Shown here: positions 6,055 to 62,841 of the stretch, in pieces | Layout: each line of letters opens with the position of its first letter | Position numbering within the stretch: position 1 is the stretch's first letter | Origin: Mizuhopecten yessoensis | Lineage: Eukaryota | NCBI RefSeq assembly: GCF_002113885.1 | Contig: NW_018406776.1 | Location: 215,208-279,207, forward strand | Direction of reading: 5' to 3' | DNA: 64,000 nt | Notes under the pieces: model-generated | Told to the model about the DNA's origin: nothing | Database searches by the model: none | The model's input: the letters and a program-made list of their open reading frames with translations, nothing else | Translations under genes and position numbers: made by a program

Positions 6055-6270
6055 ATATTGTATAAAGAAAAATTCTTAACAACGAGTCTTTAGTACTTTC
6101 ATCTCTTCTAGGAGATTCTTCAGACTGTTTATTTGAAGTATAAATGATAATACTTCAAATAAACAGTCTGAAGAATCTCCTAGAAGAGATGAAAGTACTA
6201 AAGACTCGTTGTTAAGAATTTTTCTTTATACAATATTTATTCGTCCGTAATGATCATTTTTCTGATTTAT
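6055..6270. mobile_element. Perfect 87-bp inverted repeat (6055-6141 / 6150-6236, 8-nt loop), probably an inverted Penelope-like pseudo-LTR remnant in a (TA)n site
   Basis: The arms are exact reverse complements, flanked by TA runs. Each arm contains AATAAAC followed by CTGAAGA-ATCTC-loop-GAGAT-GAAA. Confidence 0.7.
6162..6210 (+). ncRNA. Minimal type I hammerhead-ribozyme-like motif (identical copy on the - strand at 6081-6129)
   Basis: CUGAAGA 6168-6174; stem II AUCUC/GAGAU; GAAA 6191-6194; palindromic AGUACU then A6200. Stem I (aacagt/act-c-gtt) is offset by 3 nt, so the motif is non-canonical. Confidence 0.55.
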
Positions 6271-6304
6271 AATATATATATAGATATATATATTAATATA
6301 TATT

Positions 6305-15300: not shown

Positions 15301-15949
15301 AAATATCAGTGACTTCATGAAACACATGCATTTGTATCATTTCTCCAAAAAATATCTTCCAGTATAAAATCTTCTAAATACATTAAGCTTCATTAGATTC
15401 TCTAAATAGAAAACCCCTTAATAACTGTAGCTGTATTAAAGAGAGGGGTATTTGACAGGGTGATATGGAACAAGGAATGTATTGGCTTCTCAATTACTTT
15501 CACGTGACTTTGCTTTCACTATAAATATCTTTAAAATTACTCTCTAATTAAAAAAAGTAAATTAACCATGATATACAGTTACATCAAACCGTTAACTAAG
15601 TATGCCGCGCTCTTTGTTTACTACCTGAGGTCTATCATATATGCCGATATCGTGTTAAACAGTAATTAGCGCTGCCTTTCAGATTCTATTTATTGCTTGT
15701 GGTCTGGTGGAAATATCACAGTAAAGGAAAAATTAACAACAGTCCCTATCTCTACTGGGGGAAAAAAGTGCCGATGGTGATAATTGAAGATAACTTGTAA
15801 ACTAACTTTCCTTTTCAGTATTGCAAAAGCTACTGACTTGCGATATTTTCCAATTATTATGAAAAGCCGTATGATAGACCAATTTATATATAAATATTAT
15901 TTAATGAAAATGTCTGTTACATTCTACATTGATATAACCGTGTTTGCTA

Positions 15950-18900
15950 TGACTACACCATTATATAGTGATATGCTCGTGTTTATAATGTTTGACACAT
16001 TTTATATAGATATGCTTGTGTTTGTAATGTTTGTCATATTTTATATAGATAAACTCGTGTTTGTAATGTTTGACACATTTTATATAGATATATTGGTGTT
16101 TGTAATATTTGACACATTTTATATAGATATACTCTTGTTTGTAATGTTTGTCATATTTTATATATATATATGCTCGTGTTTGTAATGTTTGTTACATTTT
16201 ATATAGATATGCTCGTGTTTGTAATGTTTGTCACATTTTATATAGATATGCTCGTGTTTGTAATGTTTGACACATTTTAAATAGATTTGCTTGTGTTTGT
16301 AATGTTTGACACATTTTATTTAGATATGCTCGTGTTTGTAATGTTTGTCACATTTTCTATAGATATGCTCGTGTTTGATTTATTGTTTGACACATTTTAT
16401 ATAGATATACTCGTGTTTGTAATGTTTGACACATTTTATATAGATATGCTCGTGTTTGTAATGTTTGTCACATTTTATTTAGATATGCTCATGTTTGTAA
16501 TGTTTGTCACATTTTATATAGATATACTCGTGTTTGTAAGGTTTGTCACAATGTATATAGATATGCTCGTGTTTGTAATGTTTGTCACATTTCATATAGA
16601 TATGCTCGTGTTTGTAATGTTTGACATATTTTATATAGGTATGCTCGTGATTTTATTGTTTGACACATTTTATATAGATATGCTCGTGTTTGTAATGTTT
16701 GACACATTTTATTTAGATATGCTCGTGTTTGTAATGTTTGTCACATTTTATATAGATAAACTCGTGTTTGTAATGTTTGTCACATTTCATACAGATATAC
16801 TTGTGTTTGTAATGTTTGACACATTTTATATAGATATGCTCGTGTTGGTAATGTTTGTCACATTTTATATAGATAAACTCGTGTTTGTAATGTTTGTCAC
16901 ATTTCATACAGATATGCTCGTGTTTGTAATGTTTGACACATTTTATATAGATATGCTCGTGTTTGTAATGTTTGACAAATTTTATTTAGATATACTCGTG
17001 TTTGTAATGTTTGTCACATTTTATATAGATATGCTTGTGTTTGTAATGTTTGACACATTTTATACAGATATGCTCGTGTTTGTAGTGTTGGACACATTTT
17101 ATTTAGATATGCTTGTGTTTGTAATGTTTGACACACTTTATATAGATATTCTTGTGTTTGTTATGTTTGACACATTTTATATAGATATTCTTGTTTTTGT
17201 AATGTTTGACACATTTTATATGGATATGCTTGTGTTTGTAATGTTTGACGCATTTTATATAGATATGCTCGTGTTTGATTTATTTTCCACATTTTATATA
17301 GATATACTCGTGTTTGCAATGTTTGTCACATTTTATATAGATATACTCGTGTTGGTAATGTTTGTCACATTTAATATAGATATGCTCGTGTTTGTAATGT
17401 GTGTCACATTTCATACAGATATGCTCATGTTTGTAATGTTTGACAAGATATACTCGTGTTTGTAATGTTTGTAACATTTTATATAGATAAACTCGTGTTT
17501 GTAATGTGTGTCACATTTCATACAGATATGCTCATGTTTGTAATGTTTGTTTATATAGATAAACTCGTGTTTGTAATCTTTGTCACATTTCATACAGATA
17601 TGCTCATGTTTGTAATGTTTGACACATTTTATACAGATATGCTCGTGTTTGTAATGTTTGTCACATTTCATACAGATATGCTCATGTTTGTAATGTTTGA
17701 CACATTTTATACAGATATGCTCGTGTTTGTAGTGTTGGACACATTTTATTTAGATATGCTTGTGTTTGTAATGTTTGACACACTTTATATAGATATTCTT
17801 GTGTTTGTTATGTTTGACACATTTTATATAGATATTCTTGTGGTTGTAATGTTTGACACATTTTATATGGATATGCTTGTGTTTGTAATGTTTGACACAC
17901 TTTATATAGATATTCTTGTGTTTGTAATGTTTGGCACATTTTATATAGATATTCTTGTGGTTGTAATGTTTGACACATTTTATATAGATACACTCGTGTT
18001 TGTAATGTTTGTCACATTTCATACAGATATGCTCATGTTTGTAATGTTTGTCACATTTTATTTAGATATGCTCATGTTTGTAATGTTTGTTTATATAGAT
18101 AAACTCGTGTTTGTAATGTGTGTCACATTTCATACAGATATGCTCATGTTTGTAATGTTTGACACATTTTAAATAGATTTGCTTGTGTTTGTAATGTTTG
18201 ACACACTTTATATAGATATTCTTGTGTTTGTAATTTTTGACACATTTTATATAGATATTCTTTTGTTTGTAATGTTTTACACATTTTATATAGATATTCT
18301 TTTGTTTGTAATGTTTTACACATTTTATATAGATATTCTTGTTTTTGTAATGTTTGACACATTTTATATGGATATGCTTGTGTTTGTAATGTTTGACGCA
18401 TTTTATATAGATATGCTCGTGTTTGAAATGTTTGTCACATTTTATATAGATATACTCGTGATTGTAATGTTTGACACATTTTATATGGATATGCTTGTGT
18501 TTGTAATGTTTGGCACATTTTATTTAGAATGCTCGTGTTTGTAATGTTTGACATATTTTATATAGATAAGCTTGTGTTTGTAATGTTTGATACATTTTAT
18601 ATAGATATGCTTGTGTCTGTAATGTTTGACACATTTTATATAGATATTTTTGTGTTTGTAATGTTTGAAACATTTTATATAGATATGCTCGTGTTTGATT
18701 TATTTTCCACATTTTAAATAGATATACTCGTGTTTGAAATATTTTCCATATTTTATATGGATATGCTCGTGTTTGTAATGTTTGGCACATTTTATTTAGA
18801 TATGCTCATGTTTGTAATGTTTGTCACATTTTATTTAGATATGCTCATGTTTGTAATGTTTGTTTATATAGATAAACTCGTGTTTGTAATCTTTGTCACA

Positions 18901-19820
18901 TTTCATACAGATATGCTCATGTTTGTAATGTTTGTTTATATAGATAAACTCGTGTTTGTAATGTTTGTCACATTTCATACAGATATGCTCATGTTTGTAA
19001 TGTTTGACACAATGTATATAGATATGCTCGTGTTTGTAATGTTTGACACATTTTATATAGATATACTCGTGTTTGTAATGTTTGACACATTTTATATAGA
19101 TATGCTTGTGTTTGTAATGTTTGGCACATTTTATTTAGATATGCTCATGTTTGTAATGTTTGTCACATTTTATATAGATAAACTCGTGTTTGTAATGTTT
19201 GTCACATTTTATATAGATATGCTCGTGTTTGTATTGTTTGACACATTTTATATAGATATGCTCGTGTTTGATTTATTTTCCACATTTTATATAGATATAC
19301 TCGTGTTTGAAATATTTTCCATATTTTATATGGATATGCTCGTGTTTGTAATGTTTGACACATTTTATAAACATATGCTCGTGTTTATAATGTTTGACAT
19401 ATTTTATAAAGATATGCTCTTTTTTGCAATGTTTTCAACATTTTATATACATTGTAGATATGCTCGTGTTTGTAATGTTTGACATATTTTATATAGGTAT
19501 GCTCGTGTTTTTATTGTTTTCCACATTTTATATAGATATGCTCGTGTTTGTATTGTTTTCCACATTTTGTATAGATTTGCTCGTGTTTGTTATGTTTGAC
19601 ATATTTTATATACATATGGCAGTAGTTTTTTTGTTTTTTCAGATTTTATATTGATATGCTAGTGGATATTTTCATGCCTATAAAAACAAGTAGATTTGCT
19701 TACGTCTGTTATATTTTATATAGATATGCTATAGCTTGTAATGTCTGAACTGTTTTGTAGATATGTTTGTGTCTTTCATATTGTGTATATATATGCTCAT
19801 GTTTGTAATTTCTGTCACAT
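15950..19820 (+). repeat. 39-bp tandem satellite (about 95 units) with duplicated multi-unit blocks
   Basis: Unit atatagatatgctcgtgtttgtaatgtttgacacatttt. 13-aa periodic pseudo-ORFs (DMLVFVMFDTFYI). Both edges are degenerate. Confidence 0.97.
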
Positions 19821-28307: not shown

Positions 28308-29057
28308 ATGGATGAAGATATTTTGGTAGCCGCCACTAATGAAAACACAACACTTTTCAATGACAGTGCTAATGGAACTGATGCCAAGGATTCCGAGATG
28401 GTGTCTACAGAGTGGGTAGTATTTCTATCTCTCCTGTATTCACTGACCACTCTTCTGTCTATCGTCGGTAACGTCTTGGTCGTCATCGTTTTTGCACGCG
28501 GACGGAGATCGCGGACAGACTTACGTCCGTTTCTCATCAATCTTGCCGTGGCGGACCTGATCATGGCGGTCTTCTGTATGCCTTTCACATTCGGAGATAC
28601 CATCTATAAAAGCTGGTTATTCTCGGAACCAATGTGTCCAATTGTGTTGTTCATACAAACGCTGTCTGTGTCCGCTAGTGTGTTCATCAACGTGGCGGTC
28701 GGAGTAGACAGGTTCATTGTTGTTGCCTTTCCTCTCTACTCCAAGGCGTCACAGGCCCGTTCAAAACAGGTCATAGTGGCCACCTGGATACTATCTATAA
28801 GTATAGCATCGGCCGTCGTGCCATTTGCTCACACACAACGAATAAGAAATACCACCAGGATCAAATGTTCCGAGATTTGGCCATCGGTTCAGGTTCAAAG
28901 GTTCTATTCAGTGGCATTATTTGTAATAATATACCTGCTACCGTTACTGGTCCTGTCCGTAGCTTATAGTATCGTAGGATTCGTGCTGTGGAAAAGGACG
29001 ACGCCAGGAAATCGGGATCAAATGAGAGACATGTTACAACTGCGGTCAAAAATAAAG
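28308..29057 (+). CDS. Class A (rhodopsin-like) neuropeptide GPCR, NPY/RYamide-luqin/tachykinin-like; first coding exon (250 aa, TM1-TM5)
   Basis: N-terminal N-glycosylation sites (NTT, NDS, NGT). TM1 GNVLV, TM2 NLAVADL...CMPF, ECL1 WLF..PMC, TM3 DRF, TM4 W, ECL2 KCSEIWP, TM5 YLLPL...Y, then LWKRTTPGN. Phase-0 donor AAG|GTAAGG at 29057/29058. No TM6 CWxP or TM7 NPxxY exon found in the window. Confidence 0.93.
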
Positions 29058-39860: not shown

Positions 39861-41815
39861 TTAGCGCATAACGTAATATTGAACATATCATTTGAGAGAT
39901 TATGTGCCAAATCAATACGATTGTTTTCAGTGAAACCATAAAGTGATGTGTCATCTGCAAATAATAAAATGTTACTAGAAATACAATCTACAATATCATT
40001 GATATAAATTATAAACATTAATGGTCCGAGGACCGAGCCTTGAGGCACGCCTTCTCTGTGGTACAGGGCAAAACCTTCTGTTATCACTATTTTTTTCATT
40101 GAAGTTAAAAAAAAAATTGAACCAGTTTAGAACATTACCTGTAATACCACATGTTTCGAAGTTATGTAAAAGCCTTGCTTTTATCACAGAAGATAAATAT
40201 AATTTCCTTATTTTGATCAAGGTTATTAACAATTGTGTGGTATATGGAGAGTAAATGATTAACAGGTGAATCATTTGGAGTGAAACCTGATTGATGTTTT
40301 GTAATAATGTGATGCATAGTAAAATAATTATAAAGATATTTAAAAATGATTTTTTCTAGCATTTTGCTAAACCAAGATGTAACAGAGATAGGCCCACAAT
40401 TGCTTACATCATTAGCTAAACCTTTTCCTTTACAAAACGCATTTATGTTAGCCATCTTCCAGCTTAGAGGAATATTACTTGTTTCAAGTGTTTTATTGAA
40501 GAGTAAAGTTAGAGGAAGAGTGATAGATGGTTGTAGTTGTTTAATTATTGTTGGTAACATACCATCAGGTCAAGCAGGTCAAATAGTATCTAAGAGGGAC
40601 AGTCGATCTTTAACATCTTGTTGAGTAATGATAATATTATTTATTGAATGGGTAGGATTATTTATTGTTTCAGTAATTGGTGCAGTATCTACTGTGGATA
40701 TTGACTTAAAATACTTATTTAAACATTCTGCTTTGTGAGATGGATGCTGCTGAACAAATGAGTTATCATGTTTAAGTGGAGGAATAGAGTTAGCTTTATT
40801 ATTGATATTATTTTTTTTATCAATTTGTGAGATAGTTTTGTTACTCTGAGATTTGCCATGTTTTTTTTTCTTAATTTCACATATTTTACTTATTGTATTA
40901 TTTTTAATTTTTCTATAGTTTCTCCAATGAATCTCAGAATTACTACATTTAGTTTTTGTATGGGCTTTAATTCTTTGTCTCATTTTAATTATTATATCAT
41001 TTGTCATCCACTTCTTATCATTTTGTCTTACTGTTATATTTACGCTTTATATTATACAATCAGGAATTAGTTGGTTTATTTTATCACATAAAATGTTGTC
41101 AAATTTATTACAGTCATATCTATTATTCAGACTTTCCCAATCTGTTTCAGTTATATGTCAATAAATTTGACAATTTTTCTGCATCTTGATGAATAACGAT
41201 CTTCTTTTGATTTGTATGTTGTTTGAAGACACTATAAGAGATGTTAAACTGGATCAGAGAATGGTCAATGAAAATAGGAGAAGATACAGATGCATTTTTC
41301 ACTAAGTTGTCATTATTCGGAAAAAAAAGTATTGATGCTGAAGAAGCTGGAGTGATACGGGTGGGTTTATTAATAAAACTACAAAGATTAAATTTTGCCA
41401 TAAGTCTACTAACATGAGAATGTAGATTCAAAATATCAATATTTAGATCACCAGTAACTATTATACCCAAGTTAGTATTAGTGACTTTTTCAAGGACAGA
41501 GTCTAATGTTTCCCAATATCTAACCAGTGATCATGTCTATAGATTCCACCTATATCATCTCAATTTCATAATGTAACAGATCGGGTCTTCTTTTAGTGTA
41601 AATATTATTTTATGGTAGATTAAAACTCATCCCCAGGATCAGTTCTATCTACTCTATGAAAGACATTTGAGGAACACTCAAATGCTATTTCAGAATCTGG
41701 AATTTCGGGAGCAAGATGGGTTTCCGTTACACAAAGTATATCACTTTCATTAAGTTCACATTCAATAATATCAGTTTTATTTTTTAAAGATCTTACATTG
41801 AGGTAAGACATTTTA
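39861..41815 (-). mobile_element. Decayed CR1/L2-group LINE ORF2 (APE endonuclease + RT), 3'-truncated
   Basis: YLNVRSLKNK...DILCVTETHL, TGDLNID and IDHS (APE). PISVTSWFSKMLEK, HQSGF, CDKSKAF, GVPQGSVLGPLMF and LFADD (RT). Confidence 0.9.
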
Positions 41816-41899
41816 AAAGTATACCATTAAGCATGAACATACACAAGTAAAATATAAAATAAAGTCAAGCTTGTGTCTGATCAAATCGATTTTGTAAAA

Positions 41900-42055
41900 C
41901 AAATATATTTATATAACTAAAAAGATCAAATGTCCATGTGAGAAAGCAAGTAAAAAGAAATAAGTCTAACAGATCTAACGACCGACAACAGAGCTAGCCA
42001 GAAGCCATGTGAGGGTGTAAGCAGCCAGATTTGTAGTCGGTCGTTTCATCTTACA
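41900..42055. mobile_element. Older degenerate copy of the 42538-42975 fold-back element
   Basis: aaatgtccatgtga and aacgaccgac are reverse complements of right-arm sequence. gaagccatgtgagggtgtaagcagcc...tagtcggtcgtt is a decayed + strand hammerhead-like segment. Confidence 0.6.
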
Positions 42056-42537
42056 TTGTATTTTATGATATATCATGCATGTATAAAGCCAGGAACACCA
42101 ATGATAACTAAACGTGAAGTAAAGACTAAAAGCATAAGTGAAAGGAATACAACATTTTATATCGAAAGATTGACTGTTTCACGGCTCTGTAGAAAACTAA
42201 TAAAGAGCCTATGCTCTCGTATGTATAAACCTTTGCTCTTATTGATCGATATTTCTTTGCCGAAATACTTATGCATAAAGATTAAATTTTATTTGAAACC
42301 AAATGATATAATTGTTTTTCTTTTTTGTTTTCACGATTTCTTTCGAAAACAATCTGTAAAGCAATGTTTTAATAGCATGATATTATGCCATTATGAAAAT
42401 ATAACTTTTGACTGATGTCAATTCATGGATCTTAATACCCTTGATAAATATATAATGACTGAGGGCACAGGCTGCTGTCCATATTTTCACGATTCGTTGT
42501 GTAGAATAAGGTTAAAGGCGTCATTATATATATATCT

Positions 42538-42975
42538 TTATAGAAAAAGTAAGATTAACGACCGACTAAAATACTAGCTGCTTTCACCCTTCACAGGGCC
42601 CTTCGGGTTTATTCAAAAGAACAGCTTCGTGACGTCACACTTACATGTCACCACACCACAATAGTAACATGACGTTACGAAGTATACAAGATTGGTGGAC
42701 AATTGGTGTGATGACATGTAATTGTGACGTCACGAAGTTGTTCTTTTGAATATATATTGTCCACCATTTTTGTGTACTTCGTGACGTCACGTTACTATTG
42801 TAGTGTGATGACATGTAATTGTGACGTCACGGAGTTGTTCTTTTGAATAAACCTGAAGAGCCCTGTGAAAGGTGAAAGCAGGTAGTTTTTTAGTCGGTCG
42901 TTAATCTTATTTTTTCTATATTTACTTCCTTCACATGGACATTTAATCCTTTTTTATTATACATATTTATATATT
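42538..42975. mobile_element. Imperfect fold-back element (arms about 42538-42702 and 42755-42921), probably inverted Penelope-like pseudo-LTRs
   Basis: About 165-bp diverged inverted arms around an extra partial copy of about 50 bp. TA-rich flanks. AATAAAC + hammerhead core + T-rich tail. Confidence 0.7.
42845..42891 (+). ncRNA. Minimal type I hammerhead ribozyme motif (variant copy on the - strand at about 42568-42614)
   Basis: Stem I AAAC/GUUU; CUGAAGA 42853-42859; stem II GCCCU-GUGA-A(A/G)GGU; GAAA 42874-42877; UA cleavage site 42883-42884. The consensus of the two arms is fully canonical. Confidence 0.65.
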
Positions 42976-44778
42976 TCCAAATTAAACCGCGGCTTGGAGA
43001 TGTATCTGATTACAGTCAGATTTTTTCAGGAACATCCTATTTTCGAAAAAGTAGTATTAACATGGATCATGCATTTTAACTAAATACGGGATTGTCGTGA
43101 CCTGCCTTGTGACTGTGTCAGAGCCGATCATAACACAGACAAATCATAAGATGTGTTTTACGAATGTATTAATAAACATTGTTCATGTATACTTGATGGT
43201 CTCGCCTTAGTGGACAATCAATCCACTATCTATTGCTACATACGTGCCTCTCTTTTACGTTCGTAATTGCTACTCTGTATAAACCCTCCGTGTGTCTCTG
43301 TAATATACTGTACGTTAACGGGCCGATGTATCAGATTTGTCATTCAATCAGAATCGACGTCCATCAGCGCTATTGACAGTTAAGCAAATGCCGCTTTGGT
43401 AACTGTTCTTAATAGTAAGATTTAGTGAACTGGACACGTCTTACCAGTACAGAAAGGGGTTGATAAACGGATTGCAATGCTCTGTTTCTCTCTGGTGCGT
43501 GATTACAATTCGAATGAAACGGATTTCAGTGAGTACGACCTTATGAGCACCACTAAACAGGTTGTGAACTTTAATCGTAATATTCTTATTTTGTATACGT
43601 TTTAGACGTAATCACATACAGTTTATGGTAAATGACATATCACTGTACTGCTCACTTACATTTATACGAAACGCACTTCTATTAAAAGAAATAATAACAT
43701 ATCTTGGTGCCTATAAGTTCCTTCTCGAGGATCAGCCATGCATTACACCTCCAGGGTATGGGATAAAGAACACTAAAAGTGTTCTTATTGGTTAATCCAT
43801 TTGGCTTTATGATTTGTAAGGTGTTTTTTGATTTTTTTTGTTTTTGTTTTTTTGAGTTAAGTACATGTCAAAGAAATATCGTTGAATAGTTGCTTAATTT
43901 ATTTACAGGCTATTTATACCCATGCCTATTGCATGGTCGGCGTGTCTATATGGCCTGTTCATTCTCACGTGTGTGTTTGTACGACAAAGTATTCCTAATA
44001 AGTACAGCAATATCAATTAATCTTTGATATAGATGACCAACTGGACATCAAGTGATTTCGGAACATCAACCCGTTTTATAACATTCTTTTACACGCTTTC
44101 ATCATATAATTCCTCAACGCCGGATCAGCTACAAAAATATGTTCATTTGGTTAATTCTGACCTATGAGATAAATATTTAATGTACTCGAAACCATGACAC
44201 ATATAAAGAGTGTTTTAGATTCATTGGATAAATAGCTTTTATGATTTCGGTAACCCCTCTTAAACTCATAAAAAAAGCTGTACAAATTGATGTGGTATCT
44301 ATCTCTGTAACAAAGTCTAAAGCGTACGCCTTGTGCAGGTCAATGGAATTATAGTGTCAATATTATCGAACATTATGAAATTTCGAGTTTCTTCAAGAGT
44401 CAGGTACATACTTTCTGGAATATGCTTTTGTCTTTGCAACGTTATGTCAAGAATACATTGCAAACGATCATAGTGCAGACGGTACTTGCGAAAGGACTGT
44501 TTTACTGCTTTGCAATTAATGTTTTCGACTCCCTCGTGTCCGTGACGTTTACAATGGTCTAGGCGTCCGAAGCGGTCAATAGTTTTATCTGGCCAAGCTA
44601 AAGCCTTTGAGTTATTACATGTACTCGGTTAGAATGCACAAGATCAAAATAACGTTTAAACATAATAATTGAAATAACGTTTCAACAAACGATGAGCTAG
44701 TTTTCAAAACTAAAAATAGAGATCATATTGAAGTACCTATACCGCACGTTAGTATTTCTCACGCTAGGTACATTGTAC

Positions 44779-44957
44779 ATTCTGTCAGCTTGATCAGGCG
44801 ACTGATCAGTCCATGGTGAATATAACAAGGTAAAACCAAGGTACGACGTTACCAAGGTGGTTCAATTAGTGATGCCTTTGGCATCTCCTCATACACTAGC
44901 ACTACCTAGCCATAGTGCCGTTTGACTGATCAATCGTCTGGTAAAGTTGACAGAGTA
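44779..44957. mobile_element. MITE-like element with about 31-bp imperfect TIRs
   Basis: Left end tctgtcagcttgatcaggcgactgatcagtc; reverse complement of the right end tctgtcaactttaccagacgattgatcagtc. tac/gta at the outer ends. Confidence 0.6.
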
Positions 44958-61689: not shown

Positions 61690-62841
61690 AACGCTTTGTA
61701 GTAGGTTAAATCGCTATCAGTGTTGTAGGTGAACACTTTGTAGTAGGTTATATCGCTATCAGTGTTGTATGGGAACACTTTGTAGTAGGTTATATCGCTA
61801 TCAGTGTTGTAGGGGAACACTTTGTAGTAGGTTATATCGCTATCAGTGTTGTACGGGAACACTTTGTAGTAGGTTATATATCGCTATCAGTGTTGTAGGT
61901 GAACACTTTGTAGAAGGTTATATATCACTATCAGTGTTGTAGGTAAACAATTTGTAGTAGGTTATATATCGCTATCAGTGTTGTAGGGGAACACTTTGTA
62001 GTAGGTTATATCGCTATCAGTGTTGTATGGGAACCCTTTGTAGTAGGTTATATCGCTATCAGTGTTGTATGGGAATACTTTGTAGTAGGTTATATCGCTA
62101 TCAGTGTTGTATGGGAACCCTTTGTAGTAGGTTATATCGCTATCAGTGTTGTATGGGAATACTTTGTAGTAGGTTATATCGCTATCAGTGTTGTATGGGA
62201 ACCCTTTGTAGTAGGTTATATCGCTATCAGTGTTGTAGGGAAACACTTTGTAGTAGGTTATATTGATATCAGTGTTGTAGGGGAACACTTTGTAGTAGGT
62301 TATATCGCTATCAGTGTTTTAGGGGAACACTTTGTAGTAGCTAGGTTATATCGCTATCAGTGTTGTAGGGGAACACTTTGCAGTAGGTTATATATCGCTA
62401 TCAGTGTTGTAGGGGAATACTTTGTAGTAGGTTATATATCGCTATCAGTGTTGTAGGTGAACACTTTGTAGAAGGTTATATATCACTATCAGTGTTGTAG
62501 GTGAACAATTTGTAGTAGGTTATATATCGCTATCAGTGTTGTATGGGAACACTTTGTAGTAGGTTATATCGCTATAAGTTTTGTAGGGGAACACTTTGTA
62601 GTAGGTTATATCGCTATAAGTTTTGTAGGGGAACACTTTGTAGTAGGTTATATCGCTATCAATGTTGTAGGGGAACACTTTGTAGTAGGTTATATCACTA
62701 TCAATGTTGTAGGGAAACACTTTGTAGAAGGTTATATATCACTATCAGTGTTGTAGGTAAACAATTTGTAGTAGGTTATATATCGCTATCAGTGTTGTAT
62801 GGGAACACTTTGTAGTACGTTATATCGCTATCAGTGTTGTA
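61690..62841 (+). repeat. 42-bp tandem satellite (about 27 units) with recurring 44-bp variants
   Basis: Unit aacactttgtagtaggttatatcgctatcagtgttgtagggg; 14-aa period FPYNTDSDITYYKV on the - strand. Confidence 0.97.

Follow-up and report, generated by a model that had tools for sequence, protein, structure and literature searches.

The closest described counterparts of the locus analyzed here are Penelope-like elements (PLEs) and the small hammerhead ribozymes associated with them. In the accessible text of Craig et al. 2021 (PMC8557442), PLE insertions are 5′-truncated, often have an adjacent inverted copy, and carry a tail of 30-40 bp at one end; their microsatellite targets include (TA)n, and canonical hammerheads are reported to be missing from the Naiads. 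Cervera and De la Pena 2014 (PMC4209133) describe, in the parts available, minimal hammerheads (min-HHRs) with a dimer-type architecture and low in vitro activity, which occur as dual motifs on opposite strands, 100-700 bp apart; several motifs in the supplement close stem II with G-U. More recently, as far as the accessible text goes, Frangieh et al. 2024 (PMC11167929) reported that a PLE protein nicks AT-rich DNA and extends both strands from two internal RNA sites, and that the hammerhead of the PAc/Poseidon element of Anolis is protein-assisted and dispensable for insertion in vitro. Type I hammerhead repeats also make up the metazoan retrozymes, which are found in mussels (PMC7229834, in part) and for which an origin in PLE pLTRs has been proposed (bioRxiv 10.64898/2026.07.22.740005, in part). 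The accessible portion of a survey of bivalve transposable elements (PMC10294476) contains no treatment of PLEs.

Here we compare these systems with an inverted repeat in a window of 64,000 nucleotides, the whole stretch of scallop (Mizuhopecten yessoensis) DNA that was analyzed. With a probability of about 0.77, we consider the element to be two 5′-truncated, head-to-head 3′ ends of an abundant scallop repeat, most likely left by one insertion through PLE machinery, with hammerheads that are decayed passengers and predicted to be inactive. Its two arms (42539-42703, minus strand, and 42756-42920, plus strand) form a 165-nt inverted repeat that is 90% complementary, with 16 ungapped differences. 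Both arms are 5′-truncated copies of the family 3′ end and start at the same family base. The left arm stops at the shorter of two end points, without a tail, and its 3′ end faces outward into a TA run (42524-42535) that forms the left insertion flank. Beyond the right arm and outside the repeat lies a one-sided tail of ∼54 nt (42921-42974, plus strand), the last part of which is an AT-run; this tail belongs to the family and is absent at the left end. Between the arms sits a 49-nt sense duplicate (42704-42752, plus strand) of family positions 42801-42849, with two differences from the right arm and three from the left, which likely arose by a template jump during insertion; a short TA filler, recognized by sequence (42753-42755), then precedes the right arm. 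With its internal duplicate and right-only tail, the element is thus more than a plain two-arm hairpin. No target-site duplication is readable at the element apart from the TA runs. An assembly artefact was rejected in the main because contigs from the unique flank enter both ends in 3/3 DNA-type runs, one of which is perhaps from the source sample; one contig is identical to 42555-42733, and none spans the whole insertion.

The element most likely lies within an intron of more than 35 kb in a receptor gene, with the right arm on the sense strand. An open reading frame at 28308-29057 (plus strand) matches residues 1-250 of an M. yessoensis class A peptide GPCR of 435 aa with 100% identity; this first coding exon ends before GTAAGG, and residues 251-435 were not found in the window. 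The apparent intron (29058-64000) also holds a GC-rich retroelement of the RT/RNase H kind (52.9-57.1 kb, minus strand, with a 1040-aa frame and 4 N) as well as LINE remnants at 39.5-41.5 kb and 50.9-52.4 kb. Nearby reverse transcriptase remnants were rejected as open reading frames linked to the element, being of LINE or LTR type and not adjoining it. No frame for a PLE protein, which would combine a telomerase-like RT with a GIY-YIG endonuclease, was found in 41700-44500, where frames reach at most 75 aa except for one of 153 aa without a Pfam match. Other repeats in the window include long minisatellite arrays (400-2700, 15800-19700, and 61900-62500), the first of which holds an inverted block at ∼1165-1379, and a 52-nt inverted repeat that is 73% complementary across a 70-nt spacer (44781-44954).

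Each arm carries a hammerhead motif, and both motif strings quoted in the preliminary description of the locus are present in the window. The right copy (42849-42888, plus strand) has an intact core, CUGAAGA/GAAA/UA, at 42853-59, 42874-77, and 42883-84, and 9 of the 11 target pairs in its stems form; one pair of stem II (42863-42870) and one of stem III (42878-42882) are broken, by changes at 42870 and 42882. H17 is A42884, as had been stated, and a cut after this position would be predicted if the motif were active. The left copy (42571-42610, minus strand) forms 10/11 pairs, with stems II and III intact and one stem I pair lost (42572), and its core is altered at U4 (42605) and A9 (42600), so this hammerhead is likely dead. 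Pair by pair, the comparison bears out the split that had been noticed, in which one arm keeps the core and stem I and the other keeps stems II and III. The type I core order CUGANGA/GAAA/UH is found in the right arm and in the family majority, and the left arm departs from it at U4 and A9. Stem II is closed by G-U instead of G-C, and stem I has just four AU-rich pairs. The left arm's two core changes jointly make a small CCC-GAA-GGG hairpin (42598-42607, minus strand), which may be due to chance or to a quasi-palindrome template switch.

A type I descriptor that required at least three pairs in stems I and II and at least one in stem III gave three matches in the window (42853 plus, 6168 plus, and 6123 minus). 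In 300 dinucleotide shuffles, any match appeared in five, and none at the stringency of the family majority. Rfam hammerhead models gave no gathering-level match in the whole window and none among the 14 matches at E≤10 in 41800-43200. Since the complete motifs at 6.1 kb are also missed at the gathering level, the Rfam models are insensitive to such forms. Rfam did return sub-threshold matches to generic hairpins, mostly miRNAs, which we did not accept as evidence for a miRNA.

Public sequencing runs show that the arms belong to an abundant family. Depth is 8-19 on the unique flanks and 1e4-1e5 when summed over the arms, although summed contig depth is not copy number. A single contig at a depth of 1,924 compared to 19 corresponds to ∼100 copies of one minor variant, which implies a family of at least ∼100 copies. 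At the two positions where the right arm has lost a stem pair, the family majority is G at 42870 (75,229/75,525 and 71,607/71,851 in two DNA runs and 20/20 RNA reads) and C at 42882 (68,939/69,252 and 71,763/72,036, and 15/15 RNA reads). Of the left arm's core changes, given here in right-arm numbering, the one at 42854 accounts for 158 of 60,755 in the family, and 42859 shows no variant at the 1% level. The majority letters thus mend the lesions of each arm, and the majority form has an intact core and 11/11 stem pairs. Positions that vary by at least 1% in both DNA runs number 0/11 in the core and 8/147 elsewhere, which does not establish stronger conservation of the core than of its surroundings, and any conservation is inseparable from the homogeneity of the family. 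Among 28 variants at a depth of at least 1%, in a highly uniform family and with variants unphased, there was no compensatory stem change; a variant at 42863, at 3-4% of depth, breaks a stem II pair without compensation. Core-damaged copies occur among the RNA reads, with 42858 altered in 7/20. At H17, the tolerated A>U exceeded A>G in two DNA runs (31 versus 5 and 24 versus 3 contigs). We set this excess aside as evidence because the contig counts were equal in the third run (8 versus 8), and it may reflect one subfamily.

The ends of the family copies are informative about layout. In two DNA runs, 22 and 26 contigs have 3′ loose ends behind 42921, and 20 and 24 contigs have them behind 42974, which places two end points ∼54 nt apart; the left arm of our element stops at the first and the right arm at the second. 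Among the best-supported loose ends, which were the ones listed, these 3′ ends are followed by AT repeats and by flanks that differ from one another (agreement, 0.47-0.59). Joins between opposite strands, at single-copy depth and with differing start points, make up 7/8 joints listed in one comparison, and 7 among the 15 listed in another are of the same kind. The joint sides, whose lengths are 41-62 letters in one run or more, are compatible with a head-to-head layout alone, with arms that begin at 42849-42866 and 42904-42917. The point of 5′ truncation varies, and arm-to-arm joints differ between loci. Family depth drops toward the 5′ side, and the family extends upstream of 42757 with letters that are absent here (13-15 contigs per run, ∼30 letters visible). 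Other family copies frequently start where stem I begins, at 42849-42851 (11 loose-end contigs in one run), and 6/7 listed opposite-strand joints also begin there; reverse transcriptase may stop at this point, or an RNA may have its 5′ end here. Neither an exact 25-nt stretch of the arm nor a degenerate motif had a match in metagenome scans.

The family majority also allowed 13 of the 16 arm differences to be polarised, of which nine are private to the left arm and four to the right. A special meaning for the complementary mutations in the two motifs was not upheld: the 40-nt motif holds 5 differences and the other 125 nt hold 11 (p=0.54), so the motif is neither enriched nor depleted, and the pattern is one of private decay in two copies. 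Two copies that decay independently will usually be hit at different places, and the complementarity needs no explaining. An ADAR-type scar was also rejected, as the polarised changes on the plus strand (4 A>G, 3 T>C, and 6 other) have no one-strand signature.

Two further head-to-head pairs lie in the window. One (41897-42073), 470 bp to the left of our element, is related to the same family and more diverged; it has a tail on its left end, a decayed hammerhead core, and the stem II variant seen at 3-4% of family depth. The other (6055-6280) belongs to a separate family with the same layout, including a one-sided AT-rich extension and TA flanks. Its perfect inverted arms (87 nt without a difference, 8-nt spacer) carry a complete type I hammerhead per strand, with stems of 6/5/3 bp and predicted cuts after C6207 and 6084. 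This is a young insertion of a second family and a better substrate for cleavage tests than the element studied here. Kinship between the two families is suggestive only, as judged from a local sequence alignment score of 29 that 1/133 window stretches of like composition matched. Both arms start at a common family base in two of the three window pairs (our element and the one at 6.1 kb), and not in 41897-42073 nor in the listed joints.

The case for a PLE-machinery insertion comes from the match of this family to the published insertion layout (PMC8557442) and to minimal hammerheads on opposite strands (PMC4209133), as far as the accessible parts of both papers describe them. Four structural features of PLEs were looked for, and all were found: an inverted, 5′-truncated copy adjoining the 5′ end, a one-sided tail, a hammerhead near the 3′ end, and an AT-rich or (TA)n target. 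On this structural evidence the family behaves like a PLE, and we do not file it as a proven one. The preliminary description had linked the element to PLEs and their inverted copies, and the end points, TA flanks, head-to-head joints, and published layout all support that link. If the anole PLE protein is taken as a model, insertion would start with nicks in the two strands of a TA run. From one nick, synthesis would begin at the distal end point (∼42974), and from the other at the proximal one (∼42921). The two copies would each extend to a shared 5′ base of the template and would then be joined, with the 49-nt template jump between them. The predicted cut site is 37 and 90 nt from the two 3′ end points, and the hammerhead as a whole would lie 37-125 nt upstream of the start points, so that even short stubs would bear it on both strands. 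In the source element, the hammerhead would cut weakly, as a dimer or with protein help. It is tempting to go further and propose that a protein-free hammerhead RNA is mobilised in trans by a scallop Penelope enzyme, such that the insertions record one RNA copied from both nicked strands. The equal arm starts in two of the three window pairs, and ends that differ by a fixed tail, point in this direction; we regard the proposal as speculative, with the odds clearly against it.

How well do other origins explain these observations? A tandem non-LTR retrozyme, with monomers of 170-400 nt and a circular RNA intermediate, could have been inverted secondarily at this locus. Such repeats resemble our element in having a type I hammerhead whose helix III is short, a low GC content, and, as in the focal copy, no ORF; their presence in mussels (PMC7229834) and proposed PLE ancestry (bioRxiv 10.64898/2026.07.22.740005), in the accessible portions of those sources, add to the appeal. 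However, the listed 3′ loose ends enter AT repeats and unlike flanks rather than a shared next unit, the joints listed have single-copy depth and a head-to-head orientation, stem I is short, and no head-to-tail units of 170-400 nt occur at the locus or among the listed joints and loose ends. These observations make a retrozyme quite unlikely. A DNA transposon of the MITE or fold-back kind, with long inverted repeats at its termini, a TA target, and a chance hammerhead-like motif, would also produce a long inverted repeat with TA flanks, no ORF, and both arms from the same family base. Yet the one-sided tail is part of the family, depth declines in the 5′ direction, the upstream family sequence is unlike the center of our element, and the arm-to-arm joints differ by locus, with neither symmetric termini nor a fixed interior; we therefore consider such a transposon very unlikely.

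A different kind of alternative concerns function, namely that the locus is kept as a regulatory switch, with the GPCR intron cleaved by the sense hammerhead whenever the hairpin opens, or with the hairpin serving as a double-stranded RNA signal. The core-intact copy does lie on the GPCR strand, and the contigs that enter both ends from the unique flank in all three DNA-type runs imply that the insertion is common to the samples. However, one pair each of stems II and III is missing from the sense copy, and the motif has mutated at the same rate as the rest of the arm. In equilibrium folding predictions of the whole insertion, arm pairs with arm (−268.7 kcal/mol), forcing the hammerhead stems would cost 58.7 kcal/mol, and the probability of stem I is ∼1e-39. 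Even alone, the right copy is predicted to pair its core away in its best fold, and its stem III self-duplex goes from −5.0 to −2.3 kcal/mol; the majority form has no monomer stem III in its predicted fold. In a sense-strand transcript, the left arm would be made first, and a partner would already be waiting for the right arm. Of two earlier suggestions, masking by the hairpin is thus favored by the folding prediction, and intron cleavage by the sense copy is unlikely, given its two lost stem pairs and predicted fold. One random-primed RNA run contained 47 family reads among 12.4 million records, of which 1/47 was at least 99% alike and none lay on the unique flanks, a count with little power; nor did read starts or ends pile up among 26-47 reads, too few for power. 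The run offers no hint of expression or cleavage at the locus. Altogether, retention as a switch appears extremely unlikely, and an insertion by PLE machinery that has since decayed remains our preferred reading.

Seen this way, the locus is a decayed repeat stub of little importance, and the family is a scallop example of PLE-type hammerheads. Both the layout and the type of motif have been published. The scallop family itself was not found in print, in a search limited to papers, including the supplement of Craig et al. 2021. Elements of this kind resemble MITEs and escape Rfam. If the one-RNA proposal were true, twin-strand priming could be tested in vivo on a natural set of hundreds of scallop copies.

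The comparison with known systems can be made in some detail, within the accessible parts of the sources. Like metazoan non-LTR retrozymes (PMC7229834), the copy at this locus is non-coding and low in GC, with a type I hammerhead, and its family is high in copy number; in contrast, what defines those retrozymes, tandem units in head-to-tail order together with circular RNAs, did not show up in the data covered here. The PLE hammerhead variants of PMC4209133 share with the family the type I topology, the CUGANGA/GAAA/UH core, a 4-bp helix I, a weak near-palindromic helix III, dispersed stubs, and opposite-strand pairs. From the supplement of 2014, the PLE-linked motif of the shrimp Marsupenaeus shares with ours the small G-C helix III, the UA site, and the lack of a bulge after A9. 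The consensus had been described as a canonical minimal type I hammerhead, and the type I part of this stands, as the majority form is an intact small motif with all of its stem pairs. The strict min-HHR consensus, however, has no helix III, a bulge after A9, and G10.1-C11.1, whereas our motif has a two-pair helix III, no bulge, and G-U closure, as well as a loop 3 of 3 nt, in which the dimer has an A-A mismatch at the center. By its sequence, the motif instead fits the variant group with a small palindromic helix III. In layout, the family is like the PLE units of PMC8557442: the arms are arranged head to head so that their 3′ ends point outward, 5′ truncation varies, the 3′ end falls at either of two points, the targets are TA runs, and the hammerhead sits close to the 3′ end. 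It is unlike them in that no ORF was seen, the tail is ∼54 nt rather than 30-40, and there is a 49-nt internal duplicate; it is probably not a Naiad. The mechanism of PAc/Poseidon (PMC11167929) has been shown in vitro for a lizard element only. As in that element, the hammerhead would lie upstream of the putative reverse transcription start sites, and two such sites would give the tail. If equal 5′ starts prove to be common genome-wide, the scallop copies would lend in vivo support to a two-strand, two-start-site insertion model that so far comes from work in vitro.
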